This document shows positions 9,812 to 28,060 of a DNA stretch of 64,000 nucleotides, piece after piece (within the stretch, counting starts at the first letter, position 1; each line of letters starts with the position of its first letter). A program made the position numbers and the translations under genes. The notes beneath the pieces were generated by a model, which did no database searches, was not told the DNA's origin, and worked only from the letters and a program-made list of their open reading frames with translations. Source of the stretch: Solobacterium sp. (GTDB taxonomy: Bacteria; Bacillota_I; Bacilli_A; Erysipelotrichales; Erysipelotrichaceae); assembly GCA_024693325.1 (NCBI GenBank), contig JAILLA010000074.1:2480-66479 (forward strand). The letters run 5' to 3'.

Positions 9812-10040
9812 TAGTGTACCGTACCTCAAAAGATCCTGCGGACGGTCAAGGCTGCAGCAGGTGTTAAGCATTAAAACTGCAGGACCTGTGTGCAGGATTC
9901 AGATTGGCATAAAAAACGTATCAATGATGGTTGATAATATCATTGATGGATCATCCGGCTGAATTCTGTATATGTCGCGCAGCAGGCGACCCATTGGTTT
10001 TCAGCATTAAATAAAATGGAGCCGTAAAGAGGATAGAAAC

Positions 10041-10994
10041 ATGCAGAAAAAACATAATGTGTTTCTGGACAACAATCTGCTGATCGAGCATGCGATCTCC
10101 AGGTTTTATACAAAGAGAAGCAGGGAGAACGTACTTGTGATCCTTGATGCGATCCGCCACAGGATCCATGAAGACGGGCACCTGATCTTTCCTGTCTGGA
10201 AAGATGAAGAACATGAGAACAGATTTGCTTTCCGCAGTATACAGACAAAAGACGGAAAGGCCTGGAATGCTGCATTTACATCGAAAGCAGAGTTCGAAAA
10301 AGGTGATCCAAGTGATAATGTGTCGTTTCCCATCGACAGGGCTTTGCGGTTATGTCTGGAAACCGATGCAGATGGATTCGTCATCAATCCATGGGGACAG
10401 TCGTTTATGCTGTCAAGAGAACTGATCGAAATGATCCTCAAGGAAGATGGAGAAGAATACCATATTCCGGATGACCCGATCACTCCGGAACTTCTGGAAG
10501 ACGGAAGTTTCCTGAAGCGTGCGATCAGTATCTGCAATAGAAACCGTACACAAATAAACCTGATCAAGCTCTCCGGAATACTCAGAGACAGCTGGGTCTG
10601 GATACCATGCAATGCTGTTATGAGTGATGCTGATCAAGAAATGTGGGATAAAGCGGTCAAGGCTGCACAGGATGGGGAAGGATTAGACTCACTGATCGGT
10701 CAGGAGTTTACAAACAAAGATATGATCCGAATGATACCGGACATTCTTCAGAACGGTGATCAGTTCTTTTTTCCGGTATTTACTTCAGCAGAAGAAATGG
10801 GTGAATATGGAGAACATTTTTCTAAAATTGAGAAACACTTTCTGGAGGCAGTTAATCTCGCGGTAAATAATGAAAAGAATGTATCAGGCATCGTGATCAA
10901 CGCGTTCACTGAACCGTTTGTAATACCAAGGGAAATATTTGACATCATTGCCGGAATGAAGTCAAGCATCGAAGGAGAATCGGAAAATGAGTAA
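10041..10994 (+). CDS. SseB-like protein with two SseB-type repeats (tentative)
   Basis: Two segments, ...DGKAWNAAFTSKAEF...GFVINPWGQSFML... and ...FFFPVFTSAEEM...GIVINAFTEPFVI..., fit the SseB pattern. Confidence 0.5.
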   Translation: MQKKHNVFLDNNLLIEHAISRFYTKRSRENVLVILDAIRHRIHEDGHLIFPVWKDEEHENRFAFRSIQTKDGKAWNAAFTSKAEFEKGDPSDNVSFPIDRALRLCLETDADGFVINPWGQSFMLSRELIEMILKEDGEEYHIPDDPITPELLEDGSFLKRAISICNRNRTQINLIKLSGILRDSWVWIPCNAVMSDADQEMWDKAVKAAQDGEGLDSLIGQEFTNKDMIRMIPDILQNGDQFFFPVFTSAEEMGEYGEHFSKIEKHFLEAVNLAVNNEKNVSGIVINAFTEPFVIPREIFDIIAGMKSSIEGESENE

Positions 10995-11883
10995 AAAATA
11001 TACTAAAGCGTATATCAGAAACATTGCGGAAGATCTGGTTGAAGAACTCCGTGAATGTGAAGACGGAACAGTCACGAATACATGGGAACTGGCAAAACAA
11101 TCTGTATATGATGATCTTGAGAATGCAGATTTCTTTGAACTTCATAATGCTCTGATGCGTACAGCAAAAGCAAATAAGATCAGACTTGATATGTCAGAAC
11201 ATGAAAACAAAGCAGAAGGATTGCCTTATCACCTGACATTCACAGTACACAATCAGAAAGCTCAGATCAAATGCCCTCGCTGCGGCAGTACGGATACTGC
11301 CAGATATATCTATGGTTATCCTCTGTTCAATGAGAACATGGAGAAGAAACTGGATGAAGGAAAATGGAAACTTGGAGGATGCTGCATCAATGCTGCGGAA
11401 GTAAACGGTCAGACAGTTGATATCATGCCTTCGCGGCACTGTAATGCGTGCAATAAAGACTTTGGAACTCCTCCGATTCTGTTGACACCAAAGAAAGACC
11501 TGGCGGAAGACTACAGGGATATCGTGGAATCTATCGGGTTTTCGATAGGCGGATATATATATGGACATACTGACATTACAATCAAGAAGAATACGAATGG
11601 TGCCATTGTCAGTGTTGATAAATTTCCTGGTCTTCTCGAAATAACGGATGATTTACAGATCACACCGGAAAAATGGGTAAAAATCGTAGATACTCTGTAT
11701 GGCAAGTTGTTACTTCATGAATGGAAAAAAGATTATATAGATTATTCGGTATTGGATGGAACACAGTGGGAACTGGTTATCAATCTTACAAACAAAAGAA
11801 TCCGCCATTACCATGGCAGCAATGCATATCCTCCATATTGGAATGAACTGAAAAAGGTATTCAGACAATTTGCAAAACTGTAA
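10987..11883 (+). CDS. hypothetical protein with a central zinc ribbon
   Basis: Overlaps the upstream stop by 8 nt. Contains CPRCG...(x60)...CNACN. Confidence 0.6.
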   Translation: MSKKYTKAYIRNIAEDLVEELRECEDGTVTNTWELAKQSVYDDLENADFFELHNALMRTAKANKIRLDMSEHENKAEGLPYHLTFTVHNQKAQIKCPRCGSTDTARYIYGYPLFNENMEKKLDEGKWKLGGCCINAAEVNGQTVDIMPSRHCNACNKDFGTPPILLTPKKDLAEDYRDIVESIGFSIGGYIYGHTDITIKKNTNGAIVSVDKFPGLLEITDDLQITPEKWVKIVDTLYGKLLLHEWKKDYIDYSVLDGTQWELVINLTNKRIRHYHGSNAYPPYWNELKKVFRQFAKL

Positions 11884-11963
11884 TACAGATACGATTCACA
11901 TCATGCTGTATGACGAAAAACTGATGGAAAGGAAAAGCATATTTACCGGATAAGGAGACAAAT

Positions 11964-12314
11964 ATGGGTAAGACATGGAAACAGTATTCTGAAGAGCAGG
12001 GAATAGAACTGAATGATCAGTACTTTTTGATCTACTGCGGCAATAACGAAAAAACAAGTGAATGCATGAAACAGCTTCATTCACAATATGGTTTTAAAGG
12101 GATACCTGTTAGTGCCGGCAGCCTGCCGAGAGGGCCATGGTTCTATGCAAATATTAACACCAGATTTATGTTTGTAGGAACGATCGGTGTTAATATACTG
12201 TCAGGTCCTGTAGTAGGAAATCACGCATTAACCATGGATGATTTCCTTGAAATCCTGGACATATTTGAGAAATATAAGGGTTATGGTTTGCTGAAGTTTC
12301 CTGACCAGTTGTAA
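11964..12314 (+). CDS. hypothetical protein
   Basis: 116-aa ORF preceded by AAGGAGA. I recognise no family. Confidence 0.5.
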   Translation: MGKTWKQYSEEQGIELNDQYFLIYCGNNEKTSECMKQLHSQYGFKGIPVSAGSLPRGPWFYANINTRFMFVGTIGVNILSGPVVGNHALTMDDFLEILDIFEKYKGYGLLKFPDQL

Positions 12315-12485
12315 TTGTGTTTATGATTTGAGGTGAAAATACAATCAGTTAAAGTGCTATATAGTTGCTTTGATCGTAGAAAACATAGCAATGAGAACTA
12401 TGGCTCAAAAGATTAAATGTAAAATATTGCGCTGTAGTTGATATTTGATGTTTCCAGAATGAAACAAATAACGGAGGTGACAATT

Positions 12486-14078
12486 ATGCAGGTAAAACTT
12501 AATAATTCGACAGTAATTCTCCTGCTGCCAAAAGGTTATGAAAGAGTCAATAACGGAGCAGCACTCTACGAAGAAATGTATCACAGGCATAAGGCTGCGG
12601 ATGTAGAAATGTTTCAGAATCTTGCCGGTGAGTCTTATGGAAATATAGTGATTTCTCATATTGATCAAATAGATGCCATGACATTTGATAAAAATGCACT
12701 TATCAGTGAAATCCATGGCGTTTTGGCAGATAACCAGGGTTTGATTGAAGTCGAGACCGGAACCAATCCACGTGGTTTTGAGTATGTTTATTCTATTGTG
12801 AAAACGTATCATCAGGAACAGCTGAATACAAATTACTGCATAAGAATGAATATCAGAAATAACGACGAACTTATAGAAGTGAATGCCAGCTTTTTTGAGA
12901 CCCGCATGACCGGAGTCAGATCTTCAGTTGGCCTAATGCTTGCGGTGAAAGCTGGTTTTGAAACCGAAGAAGGAAGTTCACTCCAAATCAAAGGATGGGC
13001 TGCAGATCCGTATGATCCGACGTATACAAAGGGATGTTTAATGTTGATGAGTGAAAGACCCGGACTTGATGGAATGTTTCCCGGAGATCCTCTTTCACAA
13101 GCCAGAGAACTGCTTCTGGCCCTTACAGCAGATTCATACTACAAAACAAAAGATGAAATTGATGCTGAGAATAAAGAAAGGGTACATGAGAGGAGGCTAA
13201 GAAGGCGAAATACACAGCACGAGAACGCCGTGGGTGAGAACAACAATGGACAGGAAATTGTACGGCAATTGTTTAGTGATGATGTGGTACGTAATGGAGC
13301 TTATAAGGTTGATGTTGTGGAGGAGACCCCGAGCGAAACAAAGCCTACGAGATTCCAATTAGATCCAGCATCACTTGTGAAAGCAACTGCAAGCGCAGTT
13401 GAAGGGGTTAAATCAACTGTAACCAACACAGCAGCAGAGTTTAATAAAGTCAAAACACCTTATGAGATTCCCGAGGATTTCCGCAACAGGCTTAATAAAC
13501 CCATCCCTAAAAAACTGCCGGGCTGGGGAAAACGCGATTATATTGGTTATGGAAAAGGTACCCCCTTAGCTAGCTGCATATGTTTGGGATTTCCTGTTAC
13601 AGATTCAGAATCTCTTCCATTAGGTAATACGAACCAGTTAATTGAAATGTGCCGGGGAATGGATGATCATCAGGGAATTATTTCAGTCAAAGGCGGCATA
13701 ACTCCCAAAGGGAGCAGATATGCGTATGTAATTAGAAAAATGCAGGCAGTTGATGATGAGGGTGAAGTGCAAACACCGATTCATTATGAACTGGGCTTTA
13801 ATATTCGAATCAACGGCAAAATTCACTTTATTGATGGCTCTTTCCGGGATAAAAATGGAATTCCCGGCAGCAGAGCTGACACACTGAATATTATGGCTCT
13901 TGGCAACAGCGAGTTGAAACTTATAACTGAACAATGGCAGAGAGATCCTTATTATCCTGATCGAAAGAGTGGTCTTCTGATGGATTGGTCAGAAGATGAA
14001 CGATTTGACAGTCTCTTCCCTTACAGTTCACTCAGTGAGATGCGTCGGTTTGTAAAATACATCATTGAGAACAACTGA
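12486..14078 (+). CDS. hypothetical protein built from two copies of an unrecognised ~220-aa domain joined by a charged linker
   Basis: GGAGGTG lies 6 nt before the ATG at 12486. Both halves end in a W..DPY.P...G.LM..SE...D..FP motif. Confidence 0.6.
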   Translation: MQVKLNNSTVILLLPKGYERVNNGAALYEEMYHRHKAADVEMFQNLAGESYGNIVISHIDQIDAMTFDKNALISEIHGVLADNQGLIEVETGTNPRGFEYVYSIVKTYHQEQLNTNYCIRMNIRNNDELIEVNASFFETRMTGVRSSVGLMLAVKAGFETEEGSSLQIKGWAADPYDPTYTKGCLMLMSERPGLDGMFPGDPLSQARELLLALTADSYYKTKDEIDAENKERVHERRLRRRNTQHENAVGENNNGQEIVRQLFSDDVVRNGAYKVDVVEETPSETKPTRFQLDPASLVKATASAVEGVKSTVTNTAAEFNKVKTPYEIPEDFRNRLNKPIPKKLPGWGKRDYIGYGKGTPLASCICLGFPVTDSESLPLGNTNQLIEMCRGMDDHQGIISVKGGITPKGSRYAYVIRKMQAVDDEGEVQTPIHYELGFNIRINGKIHFIDGSFRDKNGIPGSRADTLNIMALGNSELKLITEQWQRDPYYPDRKSGLLMDWSEDERFDSLFPYSSLSEMRRFVKYIIENN

Positions 14079-14126
14079 CTAACCACCGCTGAATTTTCAA
14101 AAAACCAACATTCTTGAACTGTGAAT

Positions 14127-14465
14127 CGAGTTATAGCGAGCTATAGGAGATTTCCTAACCTGTCTTGAACATAACGTGATTTATCATGTGTCATCTGATT
14201 ATTGTTGAACACTATTTGAAAAGAATGAATATCGAGCTATAGGAATTATTAATGGACAACACAGTATTCTGTTTTATAGTTGCTCGAACTAAAATGAGTA
14301 TAGGGAACGTGATCAGTTCATTTACAGTAATAAGTTGGCAATGGTGAGGTTCATATATAATGACTTGGATGTAACTGAAATTCTCGATCAGTTTCTTGCT
14401 ACTACAATTGCCAATATTGAAGATGATAAAGCCGAAAAAAAAATGAAATCTTCGATATAGGGATT
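14127..14465. repeat. five copies of a CGAG(C/T)TATAGG(G)A-type motif in a 446-bp intergenic region
   Basis: CGAGTTATAG at 14127. The exact 12-mer CGAGCTATAGGA occurs at 14137 and 14233. GAGTATAGGGA is at 14296 and CGATATAGGGA at 14453. Confidence 0.6.
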
Positions 14466-14524
14466 AATATGTGGATAAATGGTCAAAGTGATCACATACA
14501 AATGTTTAATGGGGGTGAAAGAAA

Positions 14525-15919
14525 ATGATTGGTGCTATAATTGGCGATATTGCTGGTTCACGTTTTGAGAGAGCCAACCACAAATCAAAGGAATTTGAAT
14601 TGTTTGACAAAAAGTGTCGTCTTACTGATGACAGTATAATGTCACTTGCTATAGCAAATGCCATTCTCGGATGCGAAGGAAATTTTGAAAACTTATCTTT
14701 GAAAGCTATAGAAAATATGCAGGCTCTCGGAAGAAAATATAAAAATGCAGGATTTGGAAGTAAATTTAACAAATGGATATTTGCGGATGATCCTCAGCCC
14801 TATAACAGTTTTGGAAACGGATCTGCAATGCGTGTTGGTCCCTGTGGGTATGCAGCAAGTTCTGTGGATGAAGTAAAAGAGCTTTCTGCAATGGTTACTC
14901 AGGTTAGTCATAATCACCCTGAGGGAATGAAGGGGGCAGAAGCGATTGCGGTTGCAGTATATCTTGCGAAGAACGGATTAAACAAAGAATTAATTAAGAC
15001 TTATATACGAATGAATTATTATGAAATCGACTTTACGCTTGATCAGATTCGCAAGAAGTATAAGTTTGATGCAACTTGTCAAGGTTCTGTACCAGTGGCT
15101 TTAGAAGCCTTTTATGAATCATCGGATTTTGAAGATGCCATCAGAGGGGCAATTTCTGTAGGGGGCGATAGTGATACTATAGCAGCAATGACCGGAGTTA
15201 TTGCTGAAGCCTACTACGGTATACCTGAAGGAATAATATCTTCAGCCATTGAATATTTGGATAGCGAGCAGATGGAGATCCTCTATTACTTTGAAAAAGA
15301 ATATCCTTCAAAAGCCTTGGATGAAAATGGTGAGGTGACAAGAACTGTATTTGAAGTTCTTGACGATGCAGTAGATAAGGTGATTCCTTTAGGGACAACT
15401 TTGGAAACAGATGGGAATACTTCAAGTTCTGTTATTATCGAATGGAATGACAAGGATAAATTGGTACCGGATTTCAGTTCATTTGATAAAGAGGAAAAAG
15501 GCGAAAATGCTCGTGGTTTATTATCGGTGGCTTCCATCGGAATTCAAAAAACCGCAAAAAAGGCTGGTAAAGGCATATTGTCAACGACAAAGTCTGTAAA
15601 AGTAACATTAGATCAAGTGAAAGATATGATTACTGCAAAGACGGAAAACTGCTACGCACTTACAATGGAAAACTCTGAAAACACAGAAATCCTTATGGTT
15701 GCTCTAAACACTCTAAAACAGGCTGGATATGATGCAAGATGTGAAGTGTTGAATGGCAACATGTGTGGTTATGTCTTCATGAAAGGGGAGAATTACGACA
15801 AGGCAGCAGAACTGATTGAATCATTAAGCGGTATTACCATTGCAATAAACCCAGTTGACAAGTTTGAGGCAGATAAAATCAAAAAACGTACTTCAGGAGG
15901 TGTCGCTGATGCCATATAA
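14525..15919 (+). CDS. ADP-ribosylglycohydrolase (ARH/DraG family) with a ~190-aa C-terminal extension of unknown type
   Basis: GAIIGDIAGSRFE, LTDDSIM, GNGSAMRVGP and GGDSDTIAAMTG are classic ARH metal-site motifs. The protein is 464 aa, longer than a typical ARH as I recall it. Confidence 0.85.
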   Translation: MIGAIIGDIAGSRFERANHKSKEFELFDKKCRLTDDSIMSLAIANAILGCEGNFENLSLKAIENMQALGRKYKNAGFGSKFNKWIFADDPQPYNSFGNGSAMRVGPCGYAASSVDEVKELSAMVTQVSHNHPEGMKGAEAIAVAVYLAKNGLNKELIKTYIRMNYYEIDFTLDQIRKKYKFDATCQGSVPVALEAFYESSDFEDAIRGAISVGGDSDTIAAMTGVIAEAYYGIPEGIISSAIEYLDSEQMEILYYFEKEYPSKALDENGEVTRTVFEVLDDAVDKVIPLGTTLETDGNTSSSVIIEWNDKDKLVPDFSSFDKEEKGENARGLLSVASIGIQKTAKKAGKGILSTTKSVKVTLDQVKDMITAKTENCYALTMENSENTEILMVALNTLKQAGYDARCEVLNGNMCGYVFMKGENYDKAAELIESLSGITIAINPVDKFEADKIKKRTSGGVADAI

Positions 15920-16916
15920 AATAGGTTCATTCAACGTTAGAAATTTATCCTTTGGAGCAGGTGCGAGCCGTGATTTGGATATGATTGCAGAAATCATAAA
16001 AGAGTTTGATATTATTGCTCTTCAAGAGGTGCTAAGCGAAGGGAAAATACTACAAGGGATTACAGTGAATGATGTTTCTGGCCAAGCTAAAGCGTATGAA
16101 TACTCATTGAAAAGCCGTCTAGGAAGTAATTGGGATATGTGCTGGCTTGATCCTAGTACAGACAGCAAGTGGTATCCGTACCTCGGTGAGGATTCCAGAG
16201 GTGAAGGGTATGCATTCTTATGGAGAACAGATAAATTTAAATGTCCCTTAAATGCTTCTGGTAAAGCAATAAGGCCAAGAATATATCGTCAGTATAGAAC
16301 TGATCCATCAAGGGGTGAAATGAAACTAAAAAGGGATCCGGGTTATGGGAGGTTTCAACTGATAGACATGCCAAATACTGAAATCCGGCTTATTACAACG
16401 CATATTGTATACAATAAGCCAAGCAAAGAAAATTTGACTAAGGAAATCGACTTTGGGGCTTATATGATGCGATTAAATGAGTTTTATGTCTTGGCACGGA
16501 ACATCTACACTTCGATTAGTGATGACCACAATGATTTTAATTGTGTTGTACCATATACGATCATACTTGGAGATTATAATCTCAATTTGCCGGAAAGTGG
16601 CGCAGGTTCACCTTATGTTCCTTCAGTTGTGGTAGTAGATTCTCAAAAAAGAATATTGGGAACGACAAGTGTGTATACAGACAATGGATTATATGTGATT
16701 CGTACAAAGCAGACAGATCTTTCAACAATTAACAAAGAAGCAAATGATTACTCAAGCAATTATGATCATTTCACATTTGATGATCGAACTGGTAGCTGTG
16801 TTGTACAGGGGTTACCTCACAGACTTAATGTTGTAGACAAGACTGGGAATCACAGAACTTATAAGGATAAAGTATCTGATCATCTACCGGTTATGTTAGA
16901 AATTGATCTTAAATAG
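15909..16916 (+). CDS. endonuclease/exonuclease/phosphatase (EEP, DNase-I-like) family protein with no signal peptide
   Basis: MPYKIGSFNVRNL...DIIALQEV...GDYNLN...SDHLPVMLEIDL. The start overlaps the ARH stop by 11 nt. Confidence 0.8.
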   Translation: MPYKIGSFNVRNLSFGAGASRDLDMIAEIIKEFDIIALQEVLSEGKILQGITVNDVSGQAKAYEYSLKSRLGSNWDMCWLDPSTDSKWYPYLGEDSRGEGYAFLWRTDKFKCPLNASGKAIRPRIYRQYRTDPSRGEMKLKRDPGYGRFQLIDMPNTEIRLITTHIVYNKPSKENLTKEIDFGAYMMRLNEFYVLARNIYTSISDDHNDFNCVVPYTIILGDYNLNLPESGAGSPYVPSVVVVDSQKRILGTTSVYTDNGLYVIRTKQTDLSTINKEANDYSSNYDHFTFDDRTGSCVVQGLPHRLNVVDKTGNHRTYKDKVSDHLPVMLEIDLK

Positions 16917-16927
16917 GGGGCAATACT

Positions 16928-19225
16928 ATGAACGATAATACGTATGAGATTAAGGATCAACTGAAAGCAGCATATGCTTTGAATATGTGTACTGTATCGG
17001 TTTCTCAGATTGTTGACTACAATGATGAGTATATTCTTGATCAAGAATATGATGCAATATTGAATAATCTTAACCTGGAACAGATTCCTAAAGACGAAGC
17101 ACTTCTAAATATTCTTGTTAAGCTGTTAAATGTAATAACGTTCTTTAGAATCGATAAAGCAAAACGAGAACAGATTGAAAAGAAATACCAACGTCGGGTT
17201 AAGAATGCTATTTGGTCAGCTGTTCCCAACATTGGAGTAATCGTAGCTGGAAATCCTGTTACTGTAGGGCTATCACTTGCTACACAGGTTGGGATTGGCT
17301 ACATGAACTATCGCAGAGAGAAAGCTGCGGCTATAGCGGATAAAGAAGATTCAGAAGTCGAGCTTCGAATAACTGCAAGAGAGCAGCTGAATGCATTGCG
17401 TCGAGAACTGTTTACAACTGCCTGGAGACTGGCGGATGAGTATAATTTTCCGGATAGATACAGACTGACTGAACGGCAGATAACTCAGTATAATGAAATA
17501 CTTATGGATGTCGATGAGATTCGTAAATATGAACGTTTAATGGCTGTAAAGGATAAGTTTGAGGCATACCTTCCGTTTTGGTATTTTGCCGGTCATTCAG
17601 CGAAATTCATTTCTGAAGACAGAAATAACGGGCTAGATCAAGACGACAGGGACTACTTCAGAAGGCAGGCACTGGAACACTTTGAAAAATATGAGAATCT
17701 GAACTCATTCAACATTCTCAGGGAGGATTCGCTGACAGCTTCATTTGCGCTTGAATATGTAGATCTGCTTCTGCTGGATCAGAAGCCTGACGTTGAGAAA
17801 ATCACAAAGTTGATCAGGACTGCTGTTGAGATGGCTGGGAATGCGAATGACATTCTTGAACTTTGCGCTATTTCTTATCTAAAGATGGGCAATAGTAATG
17901 AAGCTGCGAAACTGCTGAGAATATTGGTAAACGAAGATTATAATACTGCTACAAATGCAAAATTGTTAAGTCGGATTTATGTCAGCGAGTACTTAACTGG
18001 ATCCAGTTATAGCCCTCGTGCTCAATATAAATTACTAGCGTCAAGAGTCTCTCCGGCTTGGCTGTTTCCAATGCCGGAAAAGAAAGCTGATAATCTTATG
18101 CTTCAAGATGCTGAATTGCAGGAAAAGTATCTTTCTGATCAGCGACAGGATCTTCAAAAAGAATATAATGATGTAACCAAACAGTTTATAGAGAAAAATA
18201 TAATTCGTTTTAATCGGATTATCCCTGTTCCGGTTCGAGATGCAACGGATGATTACTTCTTGAATACAGACACTGCGGTAAAGCGCAGACGCCAGGATAT
18301 ATATAATGCACTGGAAAGCGACAAGGGGAATGAGTACCGGAAAACTATTCAAGAATCAGGGTTTCGTTTTAGATATGTTGAATTGATTAATGAAATGCTG
18401 ATTGCGCTTGATGGGTTACGATTGTTCCGTGATAATGCGGAGAAAGATGATATGGTTCAGAAGATCCGCAACAATCTTGCGGCGGCAAGTGGAGATTTAA
18501 AAGTGATTCAGGAAAAACTGAACCAAGATGACGCTTTTTCCATTATGGACTATGAAAAGATCCAAAAAAGTTTTTCGTTCCAGAAGTTAACTGCGGAGTT
18601 TTTTGAGAAACTCCGGGTGATCTTTGATGACGGAATTGAAGCGGCTGAATCATTAGATGCACTTGATGATTTGGAAATTGATATCGTTCAGTTCTGTAGA
18701 ACACAGGGTATTGTTGAGCAACCTCAAGGTACAAAAGGAAAGCTTGAACAGCCTGAAGAGGAAAATGATTATATTTCTTTGGACATTCTTGGCACCGATG
18801 AACATGATGAGAGCTTTAGCAAAGTCGTGTTCAATAAGATGTTGAGTGTAGTAAAAGAGGCCTCTAATAATATCGTTATTGATAAAACAAAAGTTGATTT
18901 TATTGTCCGTGGAGATCAGAAATTTGAGTTATACTTCAAAAATGTTAAACTCAAGGGCGAAGCGTTTAAAACAAAAACTCTGGCAGTGCTTGATGATCAT
19001 ACTTCGGCGGATTCTGATCTGTTTATTACATGTGACGGAGTTGTTCCAGTAAAGCACAGTAAAGTTGATAGTTTACGTGATTTTAGCAAAATTGAGTACC
19101 AGGGAAAGAGCATAAAATTCGGTTGGCCTCAAGAATATTCGAACCGTGCTGTTGATATAGGTCGCCTTTATGAATTGTTAGAAAAATTAAAATCTATTAA
19201 GGACGAGACTAAAAAGAAACAGTAG
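16928..19225 (+). CDS. large hypothetical protein (765 aa): Gly-rich hydrophobic segment, helical/TPR-like middle, beta-rich C-terminus
   Basis: Starts 11 nt after the EEP stop. Hydrophobic segment is AVPNIGVIVAGNPVTVGLSLATQVGIGY. I recognise no family. Confidence 0.65.
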   Translation: MNDNTYEIKDQLKAAYALNMCTVSVSQIVDYNDEYILDQEYDAILNNLNLEQIPKDEALLNILVKLLNVITFFRIDKAKREQIEKKYQRRVKNAIWSAVPNIGVIVAGNPVTVGLSLATQVGIGYMNYRREKAAAIADKEDSEVELRITAREQLNALRRELFTTAWRLADEYNFPDRYRLTERQITQYNEILMDVDEIRKYERLMAVKDKFEAYLPFWYFAGHSAKFISEDRNNGLDQDDRDYFRRQALEHFEKYENLNSFNILREDSLTASFALEYVDLLLLDQKPDVEKITKLIRTAVEMAGNANDILELCAISYLKMGNSNEAAKLLRILVNEDYNTATNAKLLSRIYVSEYLTGSSYSPRAQYKLLASRVSPAWLFPMPEKKADNLMLQDAELQEKYLSDQRQDLQKEYNDVTKQFIEKNIIRFNRIIPVPVRDATDDYFLNTDTAVKRRRQDIYNALESDKGNEYRKTIQESGFRFRYVELINEMLIALDGLRLFRDNAEKDDMVQKIRNNLAAASGDLKVIQEKLNQDDAFSIMDYEKIQKSFSFQKLTAEFFEKLRVIFDDGIEAAESLDALDDLEIDIVQFCRTQGIVEQPQGTKGKLEQPEEENDYISLDILGTDEHDESFSKVVFNKMLSVVKEASNNIVIDKTKVDFIVRGDQKFELYFKNVKLKGEAFKTKTLAVLDDHTSADSDLFITCDGVVPVKHSKVDSLRDFSKIEYQGKSIKFGWPQEYSNRAVDIGRLYELLEKLKSIKDETKKKQ

Positions 19226-19327
19226 GAGGCATTATTATTTTCAACTAAGTCTTTGAAAAGAGCGCTGCAGAAAAATCAACTGCTTTGATGATACAAAGTC
19301 ATAAAAATGCGAAAAGGCAGGTAAATT

Positions 19328-21271
19328 ATGAATTATGTTCAGGAATACTTCTGCCCACATTGTGGTGCAATACTAAACGACCAACCTGGATTTGATCCAG
19401 ATAATGGAACGTGGATATGTACCGAATGCGGTCAAATGCTAATGGATGATGATATATCCAATAGTGACACCTATGAAGGTATTGCATGGTTTTGCGATAA
19501 TTGTGGAGCTCTATTGAATCGGCAGGTTGGGTTTTCCGACAGCTATGGATCATGGACATGCACTGAATGTGGTCATGTAAACGGGACAACAGACCATGAT
19601 ATTATCAATGGATTTAAGTGTCCAAAATGCGGTGCAACGCTGGATGTTCAAAGTGGTTTCAACAAATACGATGATGACTGGGAGTGCACAGAGTGTGGTG
19701 CTCATCTGCATCATTCGTATAGTGATGATGAATATGAGGAGGTTGAGGAACCAAAGCACAGGTGCCCCAATTGTGATGCCCCACTGGATATTCAATGGGG
19801 GTATAACGAATATGACGACTATTGGAAATGTACGGAATGTGGAGCTAAGTTGCATCATAGTTACAGCGATGATGACTATACTGTCATAAAACATGTTTGC
19901 CCCAATTGTGATGCCCCACTGGATATTCAATGGGGGTATAACGAATATGACGACTATTGGGAATGCACGGAATGTGGAGCGCATCTGCATCATGATTATT
20001 CAGATGAAGAGTATTCAATTGTCGAAGATGAAGAAGAGAATTCTTATGAAGATAAAGAAAGCGATTCTGATGAGGAAGAGTCAGAAGATAATTCTGGATA
20101 TTCCGGATACAGTTATTCATTTGAGGACAGGAGAACTTCTGAAAGCAACAAAGCACACAGAACTTATCAATCCCCGACACGACCGGCAAGTTCTACTTAC
20201 TCGGAAGTAAAACTAAAAAAGAAGAAATCAGGCTGGTTTGGAATAATACTATTGTTATTGATGCTCTTAGGCGCAGCAGGCTATATGGGACGTGATTACT
20301 TCACTACTCTTGGAGATACAGAAAGTCATCTGGGAGAAGTGAAACTCACATACTCGGCCAGTGCTTATGAAGATGAGAATTACTATAATGCCATCATTAA
20401 AATTTTGAAACAAGGCTTATCTAACATTCGCTTAACACCTTTGAATGATCTCAAAAGTGGTATCTTCTCTGGCGATGGAAAGAAAGAAGGAATCATAGAG
20501 ACTATAGAGATTGCTGGTATATCAGATTTCCAATCGGGTACTTGGGTAGATGCGATGTCAGTGGTAAGCATCACATATCACTCTTTTGAGAAAACTGAAA
20601 AGAATGGATATGATCCCAGCAAAAACAACCACTCGATTATAAATGGCATAGATATTGCTTTGCCTATGTATTTGGTAAATGACACCCAAGGTGATGGAAA
20701 TGCAACGTACCACGATAAAGGAGACGAAGAGGCTCAGTTTTTAGTGTCATTTGACAGTCAAGAAGAATGGACTGATATAAAGCAGTATGATACATACTAT
20801 GTCCTGAAACAGGAGAATCGATGGTTCTCGGAGATGTCAGGTGAAGAAATGATTGCGCTTGGAAAAATGAACGACAAGGTTTATTTAATCCAGGCGGTCA
20901 CGGCAGACACAAAAACAGATTCAGAGTATCTTCATATTGTGATGAAAGTCCCGGACACAAGTAGGGCAGACTATTCATCAGATTTCAAGGCAATTCTTTC
21001 TGGTATTTACATTCCAAAGGAATCGGAAATACGAATAGATTTCACTATAAAAGACTATAAAGGGGATAATTATAATGATGTAGTTTCTGCTCTTGAGAGC
21101 AAGGGATTTAAGAATGTAAAGGTTGAAAACCTTCAAGACGTTGTGTTGGGTATCTTTGCTAAAGATGGCATTGTTGAAAGTGTCTTTATAGATGGTAAGG
21201 ATGACTATAAAGTGGGTGACTGGATTAGTAATCAATCAGAAGTCATAGTTACCTACCATGGAAAGAAATAA
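19328..21271 (+). CDS. membrane protein with five N-terminal double-zinc-ribbon repeats, an acidic linker, one TM helix and PASTA-like extracellular domains
   Basis: CP.CG...W.CTECG occurs five times. The TM helix is WFGIILLLLMLLGAAGYM, and the C-terminus has PASTA-like modules. Confidence 0.7.
   Translation: MNYVQEYFCPHCGAILNDQPGFDPDNGTWICTECGQMLMDDDISNSDTYEGIAWFCDNCGALLNRQVGFSDSYGSWTCTECGHVNGTTDHDIINGFKCPKCGATLDVQSGFNKYDDDWECTECGAHLHHSYSDDEYEEVEEPKHRCPNCDAPLDIQWGYNEYDDYWKCTECGAKLHHSYSDDDYTVIKHVCPNCDAPLDIQWGYNEYDDYWECTECGAHLHHDYSDEEYSIVEDEEENSYEDKESDSDEEESEDNSGYSGYSYSFEDRRTSESNKAHRTYQSPTRPASSTYSEVKLKKKKSGWFGIILLLLMLLGAAGYMGRDYFTTLGDTESHLGEVKLTYSASAYEDENYYNAIIKILKQGLSNIRLTPLNDLKSGIFSGDGKKEGIIETIEIAGISDFQSGTWVDAMSVVSITYHSFEKTEKNGYDPSKNNHSIINGIDIALPMYLVNDTQGDGNATYHDKGDEEAQFLVSFDSQEEWTDIKQYDTYYVLKQENRWFSEMSGEEMIALGKMNDKVYLIQAVTADTKTDSEYLHIVMKVPDTSRADYSSDFKAILSGIYIPKESEIRIDFTIKDYKGDNYNDVVSALESKGFKNVKVENLQDVVLGIFAKDGIVESVFIDGKDDYKVGDWISNQSEVIVTYHGKK
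19616..20032 (+). repeat. in-frame tandem coding repeats (45-48 codons); the last two units share a perfect 63-bp block
   Basis: TGCCCCAATTGTGATGCCCCACTGGATATTCAATGGGGGTATAACGAATATGACGACTATTGG occurs at 19763 and 19898, a period of 135 bp. Confidence 0.9.
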
Positions 21272-21321
21272 TATTACTGCTTATCTGTTTAAAAATACAT
21301 AGGTTCAGGGAAGAAAGTTAG

Positions 21322-21791
21322 ATGGCACGAGCATCAAAAAAGGAAAACAAAGCCATATATCAGGTGTGTCTGGAAGAACTTGGACTCAGCAAAGAGAAGG
21401 CTAGTGAACTTTTAGAATCGATACCGCCAGAAAGATTCGTGTGGATTGAAAGCGACAAATTTACAACGTATCTAAATGAGGTGATAGTGATTGCCGAAAA
21501 GTATCGGGTTCCACATCTCTGCAAGTTTTGACGACAATGGTCTGCAGTGTACACAAATGAATCTGGCTATAGTTGCTGACTATACTAGAAAATAAAATTT
21601 TTGAAAATTCATTTAAATCATTTTTGATTGACTTGAAAACCTCTTTTGCGGATACCAAAGAAATAAAAGAGCACGTGAAAACATCTCTAGAGCAATATAT
21701 GCTGAATGTTTATCATAACGTGAGAAATTCTCTCGATGATGTTTCAGACATAATTAAGTCAATTGATTTCGATGAGTTTTATCAAGACTAA
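21322..21791 (+). pseudogene. possible frameshifted XRE-type HTH regulator
   Basis: The 69-aa ORF matches the N-terminal pattern GLS.EKASELL...ERF..IES...T...EV...AEKY..P.LC, then stops. A TTG-started 72-aa ORF in another frame follows. Confidence 0.3.
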
Positions 21792-21891
21792 ATTAATGAA
21801 ATTATTCGAAATCTATAATAACATGATAAATGAGTGTTATTCTTTTCTGATAATACAGACTGTGAATAATTGATTTCATTATCAGGAGGTA

Positions 21892-23001
21892 ATGATGGAA
21901 ACTAGGTTTTTGACATACGAAACATGTTCTGAAGAAAAGACACGTAAAATACTGCTTTGTAAAGGAATACCGTTTTTTATCGCGGCAATTATTGTGTTTG
22001 TTATAGGAATAATCAGAATTCTATCAGGATTTGGCATTACTGTCCTTATCACTTTCGTTATCTCCGCTTTGTTTTGTGGACTTGGACTTCAACCTTTATT
22101 ATTGTGGCCAGAAGATAATAAAAGAGCATATGTAGATTCAATACTGTTCCGTAGATTTCTTGTTGAGAAGAAAAAAGAAGGATACACATACACAAAAAAT
22201 GACATCGAAAAACTGAGGTTCGCATATGATCCTCTGTTCAAAGAGAAGATAATCAAGTCAATTCATGAAACAGAGGATGCTGAGTATGAGAAAAACGTTG
22301 CGAAAGCAGAGAAAAAAGTGAATAGTCTAATTAATATGTACGATCAAACTCTTAAGGATTTATCTCAAGCGAGATGGGAGAATCTGGGCTCAGGTTTGGA
22401 GAGTAATCGAACGGAAGGTAAGTTTCGCTTGAATGGCCAGGAATATGTATATAGCAGTATTTATGGGGCGAGATTGAATCAGTTTATGGGATCCAGAACT
22501 GAGACTAAGACAAATGAAGTGACTGAGGTAGATAATACAACCAAAAAACATGTTTCGATTGGCGGAGCTGTTGTTGGTGGACTTGTTGCTGGACCTATTG
22601 GTGCGGTTGCAGGCGGTGTTGCTCTCGCTAAAATGAAAAATAAAGGAAATGTTAGAACAAATACATACGTTACATCTACGGAAGTACCTACATGTAATCA
22701 TTTAGGTGTTGAAGTAAATATAAATGGATTTATTTCAGAAATTGTTTTAATTGCTAAACCAATTGATCAATCTAATCCTAAGTATGCTAATGCGCTAAAC
22801 GAAGCACAGCATATTATCTCCAATCTTCAGTATCTGTCAACGTTGCCAGTACCGGAGAATTACATTGACGTTGAAGAAGAACCAGAACTGATATCATTAA
22901 GTGAAAGAATCGATCAGGCACAGATCGAGATGGCAATTATAAAAAAGAACGTGCCTACATATGAAATCCCAGAAAGATATATTCTTCGTGATGTAGATTG
23001 A
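21892..23001 (+). CDS. hypothetical membrane protein with a glycine-zipper segment
   Basis: N-terminal TM helices and GGAVVGGLVAGPIGAVAGGVALA. RBS is AGGAGG. Confidence 0.6.
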   Translation: MMETRFLTYETCSEEKTRKILLCKGIPFFIAAIIVFVIGIIRILSGFGITVLITFVISALFCGLGLQPLLLWPEDNKRAYVDSILFRRFLVEKKKEGYTYTKNDIEKLRFAYDPLFKEKIIKSIHETEDAEYEKNVAKAEKKVNSLINMYDQTLKDLSQARWENLGSGLESNRTEGKFRLNGQEYVYSSIYGARLNQFMGSRTETKTNEVTEVDNTTKKHVSIGGAVVGGLVAGPIGAVAGGVALAKMKNKGNVRTNTYVTSTEVPTCNHLGVEVNINGFISEIVLIAKPIDQSNPKYANALNEAQHIISNLQYLSTLPVPENYIDVEEEPELISLSERIDQAQIEMAIIKKNVPTYEIPERYILRDVD

Positions 23002-23166
23002 TTTCATGTTTAGTTTACATAAGAGAACTGAAAGAATGTTTTCTAAATGAAATCAAATACGAAAACATTATTTTTAAAGATAAAGGGTATTTGTATTTTT
23101 GATCATAATCAAAAATCAGTAACATACAAAAAAGCACACTATACTAATGAATAATGGGGGCCACAT

Positions 23167-25080
23167 ATGAAACGGATAATAACTATAATAATAGCTTCAT
23201 TTCTATTTTTGGTTGGATGCAGTGGAGGAGAAACAAGGAGTTCTTCTGATTCTTCGGTAAATGATACCGGCAAAATTGAAATGATAGATGTTTTGAACAT
23301 GGAACTTCCAAAAGCTAAATTGGCTTTGGATAAAGCAGGATTTACTAGTGTGAAATCTAATTATGATAATAACAACTCGTGGGATGAAACGAAGCTGATA
23401 GTAGTAGAACAAAATATACAATCTGGCAAAAAGGCTGATCCGAATGATGAGATAGTTCTTACATGTAGAAAACTATGTGAATTGTATTTTGATTTGGAGT
23501 CGGAATACAATTTACTATTTAATAAATATGACCTTGACTTATATATTGATAACCAGGAAATTGGTTCAATATCAAATGGACAAAAATTCACAAAACTAGT
23601 TGAGGTTTTAGAAGGAGAACACACGTTTACTGTATATAAAGCCGGTGGTAAGAGTACAAAAGCAACAAAAACCATAAATGTGTCTGATCATATGACTTTT
23701 AAAAGCAAGATTACACATGGTGGCAGTATTTCATTTGAAAATTCTGAGTTGAAATATGGTGTAGAAGGCTCAAGTTTGGAAGTGATTGATGTAACAAACA
23801 AAATTTTAGCAGATGCGAAAAATTCATTGAAATCACTCGGCTTTGTTAATGTGCGAGAGGAACCCTATGGTGATATTTGGGATGACAACAACTGGATCGT
23901 AACATCACAAAGCGTAAAAGCTGGAGAAAAGATAGACAAAAACAAAAACATTCAGCTTAATTGCATTAAACTGGATAATTATTATAACGACGCTTACTCT
24001 GGCAAAACACTTGATGTAGTACAAGATATGGCTGCTGAATTGGGTGTTTCTTTGAAATACAGAAATTCTCAGGACAATAAAGATCTGGATGAAACCATTG
24101 GGTCATTACCTGATGATTCGAAGGAGTACTGGATAGTTGAAAGTGCGGAAAACTGGGTGACAAAAACAGCTTTGTTATACTTAACATATCTCGGTACGCC
24201 TGAAGAAAAAGCTGCGGCAGAAGCAAAGGAACAGTTAATTAATGAGTTGGAATCCAATATTCCAAAAGAAAATGCAAAAAAGGCAATCGTTGTAGCCTTT
24301 ACAAACAATAGTTCTATTGATGTGTTTACAGACGATGGTAATTATTACGACCCAGCCAAACTGCACGGTTATGATTATAATGGTGAATTCAAACAAACAA
24401 TAACAAAGGAAGGTACATGGACTGCTTTGGATAATACTACATGGCATGTTGAAAATATGTATCTGCTGATGAAAGTATATGATCAGGCAACAAAATTATC
24501 GTGTAATGTCACTTTTGATGGGAATAATTACATTGTTTCTAATGTGAATTACAAGACAGCAACTCCGAAATATATTGATACAGATGATCCTCAAAAAACG
24601 TCTGGATGGATGAAAATGGAACCGGATGAGTATTATATCTTCCTAAAAGTTCCTGCTGAATTAGTAACTGGTAATGGTGGTCAAAATACTGTTACTGAAA
24701 CATATTATGATGCTGGTACAACAAAAGAGAATACCAGTACTTCAATGAATTCTGAATATGAAGACTGGGTATATAGTCAATTCAGCAGTTGGGACGGATC
24801 ACATAAACAACTTACTAAATTGATAAAAAAGAGTCTGAATGATGAGAAATCGTATAAGCATATTGATACAAAATTCTATACTGCAACTGATCAGGGAATG
24901 GTCGACGAATTTAATAAGATTTTATCTTCGTCAGGATACAGTGATCGAATGGAACTGAACGATATTCTGATTCTTACAGAATTCTCTGCGAAAAACAGTT
25001 TTAATGCAACAATTAAAGCAACTGCTATAGGAATATCCAGTTATAAAAACCAAACAATAAAACTTGTTGGAATTGAATGA
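23167..25080 (+). CDS. lipoprotein with PASTA-like domains
   Basis: Signal peptide plus lipobox FLFLVGC. Two PASTA-like modules are present (...LPKAKLALDKAGF..., ...LADAKNSLKSLGF...). Confidence 0.7.
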   Translation: MKRIITIIIASFLFLVGCSGGETRSSSDSSVNDTGKIEMIDVLNMELPKAKLALDKAGFTSVKSNYDNNNSWDETKLIVVEQNIQSGKKADPNDEIVLTCRKLCELYFDLESEYNLLFNKYDLDLYIDNQEIGSISNGQKFTKLVEVLEGEHTFTVYKAGGKSTKATKTINVSDHMTFKSKITHGGSISFENSELKYGVEGSSLEVIDVTNKILADAKNSLKSLGFVNVREEPYGDIWDDNNWIVTSQSVKAGEKIDKNKNIQLNCIKLDNYYNDAYSGKTLDVVQDMAAELGVSLKYRNSQDNKDLDETIGSLPDDSKEYWIVESAENWVTKTALLYLTYLGTPEEKAAAEAKEQLINELESNIPKENAKKAIVVAFTNNSSIDVFTDDGNYYDPAKLHGYDYNGEFKQTITKEGTWTALDNTTWHVENMYLLMKVYDQATKLSCNVTFDGNNYIVSNVNYKTATPKYIDTDDPQKTSGWMKMEPDEYYIFLKVPAELVTGNGGQNTVTETYYDAGTTKENTSTSMNSEYEDWVYSQFSSWDGSHKQLTKLIKKSLNDEKSYKHIDTKFYTATDQGMVDEFNKILSSSGYSDRMELNDILILTEFSAKNSFNATIKATAIGISSYKNQTIKLVGIE

Positions 25081-25198
25081 TTATATAGAAAAACCACAGT
25101 GTTCTATTGATACGACATGGAAAATTATACGAATGATGTGTATCTGTTTATATTCTTAACAACTTCTTCAATGAGAGATATGAAATTGAGGAGAAAAT

Positions 25199-25420
25199 AT
25201 GGCAAACACAGAAGAATGGAAAATAGAATCCGAGAGTACTGTTAGCGCAGAAGATGATTCAGCAAATCCCAACATGCCAAGATGGATACATGACAAAGTA
25301 GAGAATCCAGCTTATTTTGGAGGTATTAAACGTCTTCCTTCCTGTATCTGCAGCAATTGCGGTTTCCATGCTAATAGGGAAAGACCTGTCTGTCCAAGAT
25401 GCGGTGCGAAAATGAAATGA
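25199..25420 (+). CDS. small zinc-ribbon protein
   Basis: 73 aa with CSNCG...CPRCG at the C-terminus. RBS is GAGGAG. Confidence 0.5.
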   Translation: MANTEEWKIESESTVSAEDDSANPNMPRWIHDKVENPAYFGGIKRLPSCICSNCGFHANRERPVCPRCGAKMK

Positions 25421-25747
25421 TATGTCAGTATAACTGCTTTATTGTCATGTTGATATGTTCATTGGGAGAAGTGATGGGTGTTCAGCTGATAACGGAAACA
25501 CTGTATTACAGACTGCAGGAACTCGGATAGTTTGAAACGAGGACATCCATATAGAGCACTGCACCTGATAATTTCAGAGAACTGGAACGTGCACTGTTCT
25601 GTGAACGCAGAAACAGAACAGTATGTAATTTCCGTAACAGTGCGTGATCATATTACTTCGTACAGGAATGGAAAGGACATATCTGAATTTGATTCTATGA
25701 ATTAAAGATTTGTCTTTTCATTAAGCCCTAATATATGATGTTGAAAT

Positions 25748-25785
25748 AAGGCTTCTTGAGAACAAGCTAGTTCTCAGGAAGCCTT
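25748..25785. terminator. strong hairpin (16-bp stem, one G-U) lacking a clear U-tract
   Basis: AAGGCTTCTTGAGAAC-aagcta-GTTCTCAGGAAGCCTT. Confidence 0.4.
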
Positions 25786-25948
25786 TATACTGTACGAACG
25801 GTAACGATACGTGTAATCAAAACTGTAGCTTGGCAGTTTTTTTGCATAATAAGTGCTCTACGATGTCATTGTGAGAAGAATTACAGTCTCATATAATGCC
25901 AATCAATATTGGACTGATCAGTACAGGCATAAAGCCAGGGAGGAGAAC

Positions 25949-26620
25949 ATGAATAAAATAATCAAAACCATTTTTGCACTACTATTGACAATATCAGTTG
26001 TCGGATGCAGCAGTACCAATACTGATGAATCAGTACCTGAAAACAGTACATCAAGCCCGGCTGAATCAATAGGGACCGAGAGCACAGAACCACCTGTAAA
26101 CGAAGACGATGAAATTGAGGATGAAGGATGGGAAAAACTGGAAAGTCTTGGAAAGGTACAGACAGAAAATGGTATTTTCTTTGTTTATATTACTGTACCT
26201 GCAGATATTGTCGGAACTGATGTTACGCAGGAAAAAATAGATGCTAATGCTGGAGAAACATACACATCCGGAGTTTTGAATGAAGATGGATCTGTCACGT
26301 ATAAGATGACGAAAAAGCAGCATAAAGCAATGATGGATACCATTAAAGAAAGTCTGGATAATGCTCTTCAGGATATGGTAGATGATGAAAAGAATGCGAT
26401 TACTGAGATCAGACATAATAAAGATTTCACAGAGTTTGATGTTACTCTCAGTACAAATGAATTAGGGCTTACAGAAAGTTTCCTCGTACTTGGATTCTAT
26501 GTGTACGGGGGAATGTATGCCATTTTCTCCGGGGAAGAAGCAGCCAATATTTGTGTAAATTACTATGCACCAGATGGAACACTAATCGATACTGCTAATT
26601 CGGCTGATATGAATAATTGA
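25949..26620 (+). CDS. lipoprotein, function unknown
   Basis: Internal start MNKIIKTIFALLLTISVVGCSS (lipobox), preceded by GGGAGGAG. Confidence 0.65.
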   Translation: MNKIIKTIFALLLTISVVGCSSTNTDESVPENSTSSPAESIGTESTEPPVNEDDEIEDEGWEKLESLGKVQTENGIFFVYITVPADIVGTDVTQEKIDANAGETYTSGVLNEDGSVTYKMTKKQHKAMMDTIKESLDNALQDMVDDEKNAITEIRHNKDFTEFDVTLSTNELGLTESFLVLGFYVYGGMYAIFSGEEAANICVNYYAPDGTLIDTANSADMNN

Positions 26621-26641
26621 TGAAAGGACGGACAAGAAACT

Positions 26642-27958: not shown

Positions 27959-28060
27959 TTCACAGAATTATGGATATACAGATATTGTGAGATCGAATGC
28001 TATGCAAACCAGTGGTAACAAATAATACTGCACAATAAAACAGAACAGATATTCTTCATC

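Follow-up and report, generated by a model that had tools for sequence, protein, structure and literature searches.

A candidate defence module of a DNase I-like EEP nuclease and a large TPR-like protein in an AT-rich island of Solobacterium sp.

Introduction

ADP-ribosylglycohydrolases (ARHs) stand at the centre of the ARG-centric conflict systems (Iyer et al. 2022, Viruses 14:1977; PMC9503650), where an ARH is combined with a WYL transcription factor, a phosphatase, SseB/TY-chaperones and nuclease effectors, and there is no coupled ADP-ribosyltransferase (ART; PMC9503650, section 3.8). Their regulator is either a WYL or a Nudix protein, they are predicted to reverse the ADP-ribosylation imposed by phages, and the lineages reported for them are Actinobacteria, Planctomycetes and Proteobacteria (PMC9503650). 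SseB domains have likewise been reported in ARH-centred conflict neighbourhoods (PMC9503650). Here we describe three adjacent genes in a 64,000 nt stretch of a Solobacterium sp. assembly (contig JAILLA010000074.1, positions 2,480 to 66,479; hereafter the window). They encode an ARH fusion protein, a nuclease-like member of the EEP superfamily (referred to as EEP) and a 765-aa protein (p765).

The module and its relatives have several features in common with the ARG-centric systems, namely an ARH without an ART, a WYL transcription factor, an SseB protein nearby, and nuclease effectors as variable add-ons. However, those systems centre on the ARH, whereas here the ARH is the variable add-on, being dead or absent in sister lineages, and EEP and p765 are the invariant core. 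The association with WYL is found here, but a conserved ARH centre is not. The phosphatases of the ARG-centric systems (rhodanese-phosphatase, calcineurin-like, HD and HAD) are also absent, and the term 'EEP' has 0 occurrences in PMC9503650, which likewise does not mention a p765-like protein. Another kind of system also invites comparison, namely WYL-regulated defence operons of the BrxR/CapW type that combine a nuclease effector with a repeat-domain sensor, such as the sensor-effector pairs of abortive infection or the Avs-like TPR sensors. They too have a WYL repressor gene directly upstream, a nuclease effector, a large TPR-like protein with a fast-evolving half, and residence in defence islands or mobile elements. 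EEP-p765 differs from them in having no NTPase/STAND module, in lacking homology to any PADLOC v2 model, and in that its DNase I-like effector has a gene of its own, placed before that of the sensor. The type of system is familiar (nuclease effector, repeat-protein sensor and WYL regulator on mobile DNA), the protein families less so.

Neither EEP nor p765 gave a match in PADLOC-DB v2 at E ≤ 0.01, full-text literature searches turned up no account of the two genes together, and no DNase I-type effector was found in PADLOC v2 or in the searched literature. The one ARH match in PADLOC-DB v2 (E 0.0035) was spurious. A preliminary description of this DNA had proposed a candidate uncharacterised conflict module, the trio being known from no described defence or toxin-immunity system; the second part of that proposal agrees with the searches of PADLOC v2, the family libraries (for p765) and the literature, and the core idea is supported. 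The reading that we favour, with a probability of about 0.6, is that EEP and p765 form an uncharacterised, WYL-controlled module of a nuclease plus a sensor, for which we infer a function in defence against phages or other mobile DNA.

Conserved pairing of EEP and p765

Loci carrying the module (labelled L001, L002 and so on) were collected by running a p765 profile against a single genome of each species, which gave 33 loci, and a further 12 assembly loci were added. Wherever the sequence reaches upstream of p765 (45 p765-seeded loci), the gene directly in front is EEP. For the reverse test, an EEP profile was run on metagenome contigs and only loci with enough downstream DNA were counted; p765 was directly downstream of EEP in 74 of 74 such loci. 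Since the pairing holds in both search directions, EEP-p765 is an obligate unit. The spacing between the two genes is usually 5-30 nt, with one or two small genes occasionally found between them. The hosts are anaerobes of the gut and rumen and include Lachnospiraceae, Oscillospiraceae/Ruminococcaceae, Treponema and other spirochaetes, Lentisphaerae and one Bacteroidaceae bin, so that Clostridia, Spirochaetes, Lentisphaerae and Bacteroidota are all represented.

Judged by gene co-occurrence, the conserved evolutionary unit is the EEP-p765 pair (plus WYL) and not the trio. The trio had been taken as the unit in the preliminary description, which had also set a co-occurrence survey as the test, and the survey finds EEP and p765 obligate and the ARH optional. 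For annotation, this means that the unit to recognise is the pair (plus WYL) rather than the three genes.

Two variations on this arrangement were seen in spirochaetes. The small genes between EEP and p765 (one or two, ~100-160 aa, conserved, no Pfam match) occur in L015 (9095-9903) and L019 (8501-9937), and may encode an additional subunit in that subclade. In a spirochaete metagenome-assembled genome (MAG; L017, 7763-19374) there is a tandem pair of EEP-p765 cassettes, of which the first has a WYL gene, and a short ARH is encoded 4 kb upstream. Duplicated and diverged cassettes are typical of conflict systems.

Gene arrangement and the AT-rich island

The features of the locus are listed in Table 1. 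The stop codon of the ARH fusion (15917-15919) lies beyond the ATG of EEP, giving an 11-nt overlap, and the EEP stop codon (16914-16916) is followed by an 11-nt gap before the ATG of p765, with a GGGGG Shine-Dalgarno-like run preceding that ATG inside the gap. An AGGAGG sequence is located 5 nt upstream of the EEP ATG at 15909, and all 27 aligned EEP homologues have the N-terminus M-S/P-Y-K-I-G-S-F-N at this position. Because all of them begin there, ATG 15909 is the true start, and a longer, TTG-initiated reading frame (15855) was ruled out by the same N-termini. The three open reading frames (ORFs), their overlap and their gap are therefore confirmed as given in the preliminary description, with the EEP start now backed by homologues.

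Table 1. Features of the locus; positions are those of the window.
Feature	Position	Strand	Size	Evidence
EEP ORF; cytoplasmic DNase I-like nuclease, predicted effector	15909-16916	+	335 aa, counted from ATG	Pfam, NCBIfam, profile versus PDB, residue conservation
p765 ORF; large helical/TPR-like protein, predicted sensor/regulator of the nuclease	16928-19225	+	765 aa	AlphaFold2 (AF2) model, conservation
ARH fusion ORF	14525-15919	+	464 aa	
ARH domain of the fusion, motifs intact	14525-15304	+		PF03747; phrog_6572
Fusion linker: conserved PSKALDE...VDKVIP, then Lys-rich low-confidence stretch	15305-15553	+		Alignment; predicted local distance difference test (pLDDT) <50 in the Lys-rich part
C-terminal ferredoxin-like domain (beta-alpha-beta-beta-alpha-beta), putative module-specific adaptor	15554-15919	+		Identity to stand-alone gene; AF2
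WYL regulator remnant (C-terminal third), in-frame stops and one frameshift	14182-14516	+		tblastn
p546, two-repeat protein, possible clade-specific accessory, membership uncertain	12438-14078	+	546 aa	Homologues by module

The genes lie in an island of ~18 kb (~10000-28000) with a G+C content of 0.32-0.43, compared with ~0.47-0.53 in the flanks, and the AT-rich setting noticed earlier is thus real. The island is bordered by a mannose-type PTS/YdjC/amidohydrolase operon on one side and by an M20 peptidase gene on the other. Searches of the window found no island-defining tRNA, Rfam RNA, integrase or flanking direct repeats, and the result of a promoter and terminator scan was at chance level. 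The arrangement supports a co-transcribed and tightly coupled module of three genes in a horizontally acquired island.

The EEP nuclease

EEP matches the Pfam family Exo_endo_phos (PF03372, E 1e-7) and, weakly, the NCBIfam model for MnuA (33.9 bits against a cut-off of 185). When a profile was built from 28 EEP homologues, the top relatives in the PDB were DNase I and DNase1L3 (E ~1e-12). The catalytic and metal-binding residues that define the superfamily on the EEP fold (N, E, H, D-x-N, D, D-H) are all found, and N9, E40, H165, D222, N224, D286, H287, D324 and H325 are invariant in the 28 homologues. The active site is accordingly intact and conserved by alignment, and the closest solved relatives suggest DNA as the substrate. 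The EEP superfamily also includes phosphatases, lipid phosphodiesterases and repair nucleases.

The profile alignment to DNase I begins at the mature N-terminus of that enzyme, and EEP therefore has no signal peptide; a hydrophobicity scan of EEP found no window at transmembrane level. Both results bear out the earlier proposal that the enzyme is intracellular. EEP shares its fold family and the full catalytic set with DNase I, DNase1L3 and MnuA, but enzymes of that type are secreted or membrane-anchored, whereas EEP has neither a signal peptide nor an anchor and is obligately paired with p765.

The p765 protein

The AF2 model of p765 (pLDDT 81) is all-helical to about residue 650, with TPR-like repeats, and has a long helical hairpin with a Gly-rich hydrophobic stretch (~95-125) at its tip. 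Residues 656-737 form a small beta domain, after which comes a terminal helix. The Gly-rich hydrophobic segment, helical/TPR-like centre and C-terminal beta region of the preliminary description are all visible in this model. An integral membrane protein was considered and rejected, as hydrophobicity never reaches transmembrane level (KD19 maximum 1.51). Foldseek searches of PDB and BFVD returned generic TPR, IFIT or SNAP-like matches only (TM < 0.2) and no specific fold relative. There was no match to p765 in Pfam (2025), NCBIfam (2026), PADLOC or PHROGs, weak TPR_19 and Erf4 matches being seen in some homologues only, and an exact sequence look-up of the window p765 returned no record. ArdA, which appeared when the p765 profile was compared with PDB sequences, was a chance match (E 0.73).

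The family is large, with >1,800 matches at the 90%-identity level and 1129 representatives when clustered at 50% identity. In a family sample, the N-terminal ~230 residues are 76% conserved compared with 35-45% in the C-terminal half; the conserved N-terminal part extends over ~230-380 aa, and the C-terminal half is divergent. This pattern of a stable N-terminus and a fast-diverging C-terminal half is suggestive of a sensor.

The WYL regulator and the state of the module in the window

Facultative genes were counted in 40 clustered genome/assembly loci, with metagenome loci counted separately. A gene for a WYL-domain regulator of ~320 aa is found upstream of the pair in 22 of the 40 genome/assembly loci and 28 of 60 metagenome loci, and a DUF697-like protein of ~210 aa is encoded downstream in 12/40 and 17/52, respectively. 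An intact HTH-WYL protein is thus present in about half of the related loci but not in the window. The WYL regulator, although a usual further component of the module, was missing from the gene list of the preliminary description. When the WYL proteins of L001, L034, L035 and L005 were used in tblastn searches, residues ~209-320 matched the window in two frames, within an apparent intergenic spacer of 447 nt, and the remnant ends 9 nt before the ATG of the ARH fusion. In the closest relative (L044, p765 91% identical), the WYL gene has been lost entirely.

Between the window and L044, dN/dS is 0.21 for the ARH, 0.14 for EEP and 0.09 for p765. Because these values are low between two lineages without an intact WYL gene, the three ORFs are evidently still maintained by purifying selection. 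The decay of the WYL gene implies that the operon in the window is probably no longer under WYL control.

The ARH fusion

Residues 1-233 of the fusion match ADP_ribosyl_GH (PF03747, E 4e-30), and phrog_6572 is matched with E 2e-52. The window protein retains the GDIAGS, TDDS, GNGSAMR, HNHPEG and GGDSDT motifs, including the two Asp-rich metal-binding motifs of the ARH fold (TDD[ST] and GGD[ST]DT), and it had been correctly described as having intact catalytic motifs, all five being present. This fold and the metal-binding motifs are common to the ARHs of the Tri1/Tre1 and DraG/DraT pairs. However, the window protein scores far below the equivalog cut-offs of those families (Tri1, 34 bits against 490; DraG, 55 against 337), the activity is not conserved in the module, and there is no ART partner: no ART domain was found in any ORF of the island or in related neighbourhoods, and hence no cognate toxin beside the ARH as in Tre1/Tri1.

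The ARH, or its C-terminal domain, occurs in 10/40 genome/assembly loci and 10/60 metagenome loci, and overall an ARH is present in about 17-30% of EEP-p765 loci. The adjacent fusion is limited to the closest clade of the window (L001-L004, L031, L035 and L044, plus metagenome relatives), where the window and several relatives keep intact motifs and those of two lineages are degenerate (GN.., TMDS, ENGSVIC and HNDVEG in L044/L046; TNAS, GYGVITA and GGESNE in L035/L062-65/L102). A third lineage (L039/L040, p765 80% identical to that of the window) has no ARH domain, and a stand-alone 130-aa gene is found directly upstream of EEP. The C-terminal ~110 residues of the fusion are 42% identical to this stand-alone gene of L039. 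They belong to a ferredoxin-like domain of ~90 aa (AF2 pLDDT 66 overall, 70-84 in the core), for which Foldseek gave only generic matches of the PII/PstA/ACT/NikR-C type (E ≥ 2.8e-3) and only nine fragmentary or short homologues were found among 5.8 G proteins. The ~190-aa extension that the preliminary description could not place can now be recognised as carrying this domain; as that description had it, no specific function can be assigned to it.

Outside this clade, a short ARH of the same subfamily (37-43% identity) is encoded with a WYL gene within ~6 kb of EEP-p765 in three spirochaete loci (L017, L018 and L020), and the association is therefore recurrent but optional. These data fit an ARH that serves as a clade-specific accessory input or adaptor, with a catalytic activity that would be dispensable for the core. 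The suggestion that the ARH acts as an immunity or antitoxin component is not upheld: since the ARH is optional, its motifs have decayed twice and its domain has been lost once, a role as antitoxin partner of EEP is unlikely for the core, and the ART that it would counter is missing.

The same observations bear on whether the locus is a Firmicute/spirochaete version of the ARG-centric systems, in which EEP would process products derived from ADP-ribose, and p765, the SseB protein and the two-repeat protein p546 (see later) would act as chaperones. The window does contain a WYL remnant, an intact ARH, an SseB protein and p546 but no ART gene, and the recurrence of the short ARH subfamily with WYL near the three spirochaete pairs points the same way. 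Yet 70-80% of EEP-p765 loci have no ARH, two lineages have lost the catalytic residues and a third the whole domain, the EEP profile is nearest to DNases rather than phosphatases, PMC9503650 has neither EEP nor a p765-like protein, and SseB is not conserved in related loci. We regard this explanation as improbable.

Mobile-element and defence neighbourhoods

Known defence genes are found within 10 kb of the module in at least six loci, and genes of integrative and conjugative elements (ICEs) or plasmids in at least six (raw counts). The former include Gabija, NERD-UvrD and an Eco57I-type helicase (a giant protein) in L034, GmrSD in L042 and L025, McrBC directly upstream of the module in L009, a type I restriction-modification (R-M) system in L012 and a GajB-like helicase in L018. 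In L001 (Butyrivibrio) and L004 (a rumen MAG) the module lies inside an ICE with a VirD4-type coupling protein, TrbL/VirB6, a VirB4-like ATPase and DUF5688, and in L037, L041 and L043 it is beside ParA/ParB/RepA_N or relaxase genes. The conflict-type setting that had been proposed from the window is matched by these relatives, which are carried on mobile elements and adjoin known defence genes.

Two further observations concern the surroundings of the module. Directly upstream of it in L001 (641-4780) and L044 (3338-7432) are genes for an LXG-type toxin with a Colicin-DNase/WHH domain, a small immunity-like protein and a PASTA-containing protein of ~780 aa, and this polymorphic-toxin cluster occupies the same ICE cargo region as the module. 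In L035 (4438-9924), an array of WYL, dead ARH, EEP, p765 and HNH_4 is found ~1.8 kb downstream of smpB. The smpB gene, which adjoins the tmRNA gene, is a classic island integration site.

A position inside an ICE could equally be expected of a toxin-antitoxin or addiction module that stabilises an ICE or plasmid, with EEP as a DNase toxin, p765 as a large antitoxin, WYL as autoregulator and no sensing of invaders. The genes are tightly paired and translationally coupled, they are often beside ParA/ParB/RepA_N genes and inside ICEs, and a cytoplasmic DNase-like enzyme should be toxic if unrestrained. On the other hand, the toxin gene would precede a partner of 770 aa with a fast-evolving C-terminal half, a feature that is unusual for antitoxins but usual for sensors, and many of the loci are chromosomal islands that adjoin restriction or Gabija genes and have no genes for maintenance in the vicinity. 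Addiction is therefore an unlikely explanation on balance, although roles in addiction and defence are not mutually exclusive.

The module might also serve the mobile element in a way other than host defence, for instance in anti-defence, in entry exclusion or, during conjugation, in competing with rival plasmids or ICEs. Its position between the coupling-protein and VirB4 genes in L004 and after the relaxase gene in L043 would suit such a role, as would the DUF5688, type IV secretion system and LXG-type nuclease toxin genes beside it in L001 and L044. However, WYL-controlled operons and, outside conjugative contexts, adjacency to McrBC, GmrSD, Gabija and R-M genes are the hallmark of cargo that serves defence, and neither the four family libraries nor the searched literature link EEP or p765 to anti-defence. 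We regard this role as improbable.

Finally, an ordinary housekeeping function in DNA repair or metabolism, for example as an AP-endonuclease-like enzyme with a scaffold, could be argued from the repair nucleases of the EEP superfamily and from the housekeeping genes among the neighbours. It is very hard to reconcile with the patchy distribution across phyla, the AT-rich island, the mobile and defence neighbours, the tandem cassettes of L017 and the rapid divergence of half of p765, and we give it almost no weight.

Proposed function

If EEP-p765 is a defence module, it could work as follows. The WYL factor would keep expression of the operon down as long as no signal of stress or infection is received. 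The conserved N-terminal region of p765 would bind the nuclease and keep it inactive, and recognition of an invader-derived cue by the variable C-terminal part would lead to its release or activation. The freed nuclease would then degrade DNA, either that of the invader or that of the cell itself (abortive infection). The fusion of ARH and ferredoxin-like domains would be a clade-specific input or adaptor, inserted between the WYL gene and the nuclease, of which the ferredoxin-like domain is the part kept when the ARH is lost; through the ARH, the module may be linked to ADP-ribosylation events, for instance those caused by phage ADP-ribosyltransferases.

Several points weigh against this proposal. 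The defence function is deduced solely from neighbours and architecture, and both the physical interaction of p765 with EEP and the sensing by p765 are conjecture. Location in an ICE is equally compatible with addiction, anti-defence or exclusion. The adjacency of defence genes is given as raw counts and not as enrichment over the genomic background, and many of the neighbours are ordinary housekeeping genes (123 neighbour proteins were scanned with PADLOC and Pfam). EEP could act on a substrate other than DNA, since the superfamily holds phosphatases and lipid phosphodiesterases. Moreover, p765 had no match in PLSDB plasmids or INPHARED phages and one partial match among 2.9 M viral contigs; with the pair nearly absent from phages and absent from PLSDB, what can be said of its carriers is limited to uncultured anaerobes.

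A bolder and rather doubtful extension would see the pair as the core of a new immune family, in which an intracellular DNase I-type effector is gated by a TPR-like sensor and the inputs are lineage-specific and interchangeable (the WYL repressor, the ARH enzyme or pseudoenzyme fused to a ferredoxin-like adaptor, and the DUF697-like membrane protein). The ARH would then detect invader-driven ADP-ribosylation rather than act as an antitoxin.

Should the defence reading be correct, EEP-p765 would be a defence system of moderate abundance (clustering at 50% identity gives ~1,100 protein clusters) that is specific to anaerobes of the gut and rumen, lineages that are poorly covered by screens centred on E. 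coli and Bacillus. A DNase I-type enzyme would then be seen to serve as an immune effector inside the cell, and the large p765 family, which is unnamed in the searched libraries, would gain a first functional handle. The series of ARHs that are active, inactive or deleted according to lineage could offer a natural test of whether ADP-ribosyl recognition feeds bacterial immunity.

Other genes of the island

The protein p546, encoded upstream of the WYL remnant, has homologous halves (~65-226 and ~351-546) and no family match. Its homologues adjoin the WYL-ARH-EEP-p765 array in L001, L002 and L031 but are absent from L003, L035 and L044; in L004, a version with a single repeat is encoded behind p765. 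By analogy, p546 might be a counterpart of the two-domain 'TY-Chap2' chaperones of the ARG-centric systems. Further upstream (10041-11883), the gene for the SseB-domain protein (10041-10994; PF07179, E 7e-25) overlaps that of a 298-aa Zn-ribbon protein by 8 nt. These two proteins and p116 were considered as members of the module and rejected, as none has homologues in related loci.

Directly downstream of p765 is the gene for a 647-aa protein (19328-21271) that is not conserved with p765. It contains three tandem 117-nt repeats (19619-20014) encoding repeated double zinc ribbons, and near residue 300 the protein has its one transmembrane segment; an acidic low-complexity stretch and a repeated domain at the C-terminus (phrog_29396) are also present. 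This gene is followed by a group of membrane or lipoprotein-like genes (21892-27958), encoding a 369-aa transmembrane protein, a 637-aa PASTA-domain lipoprotein, and lipoproteins of 255 aa and 438 aa, the last of which has an internal duplication of 576 nt in its gene. In L001 and L044, too, the module has PASTA-domain proteins at its flanks.

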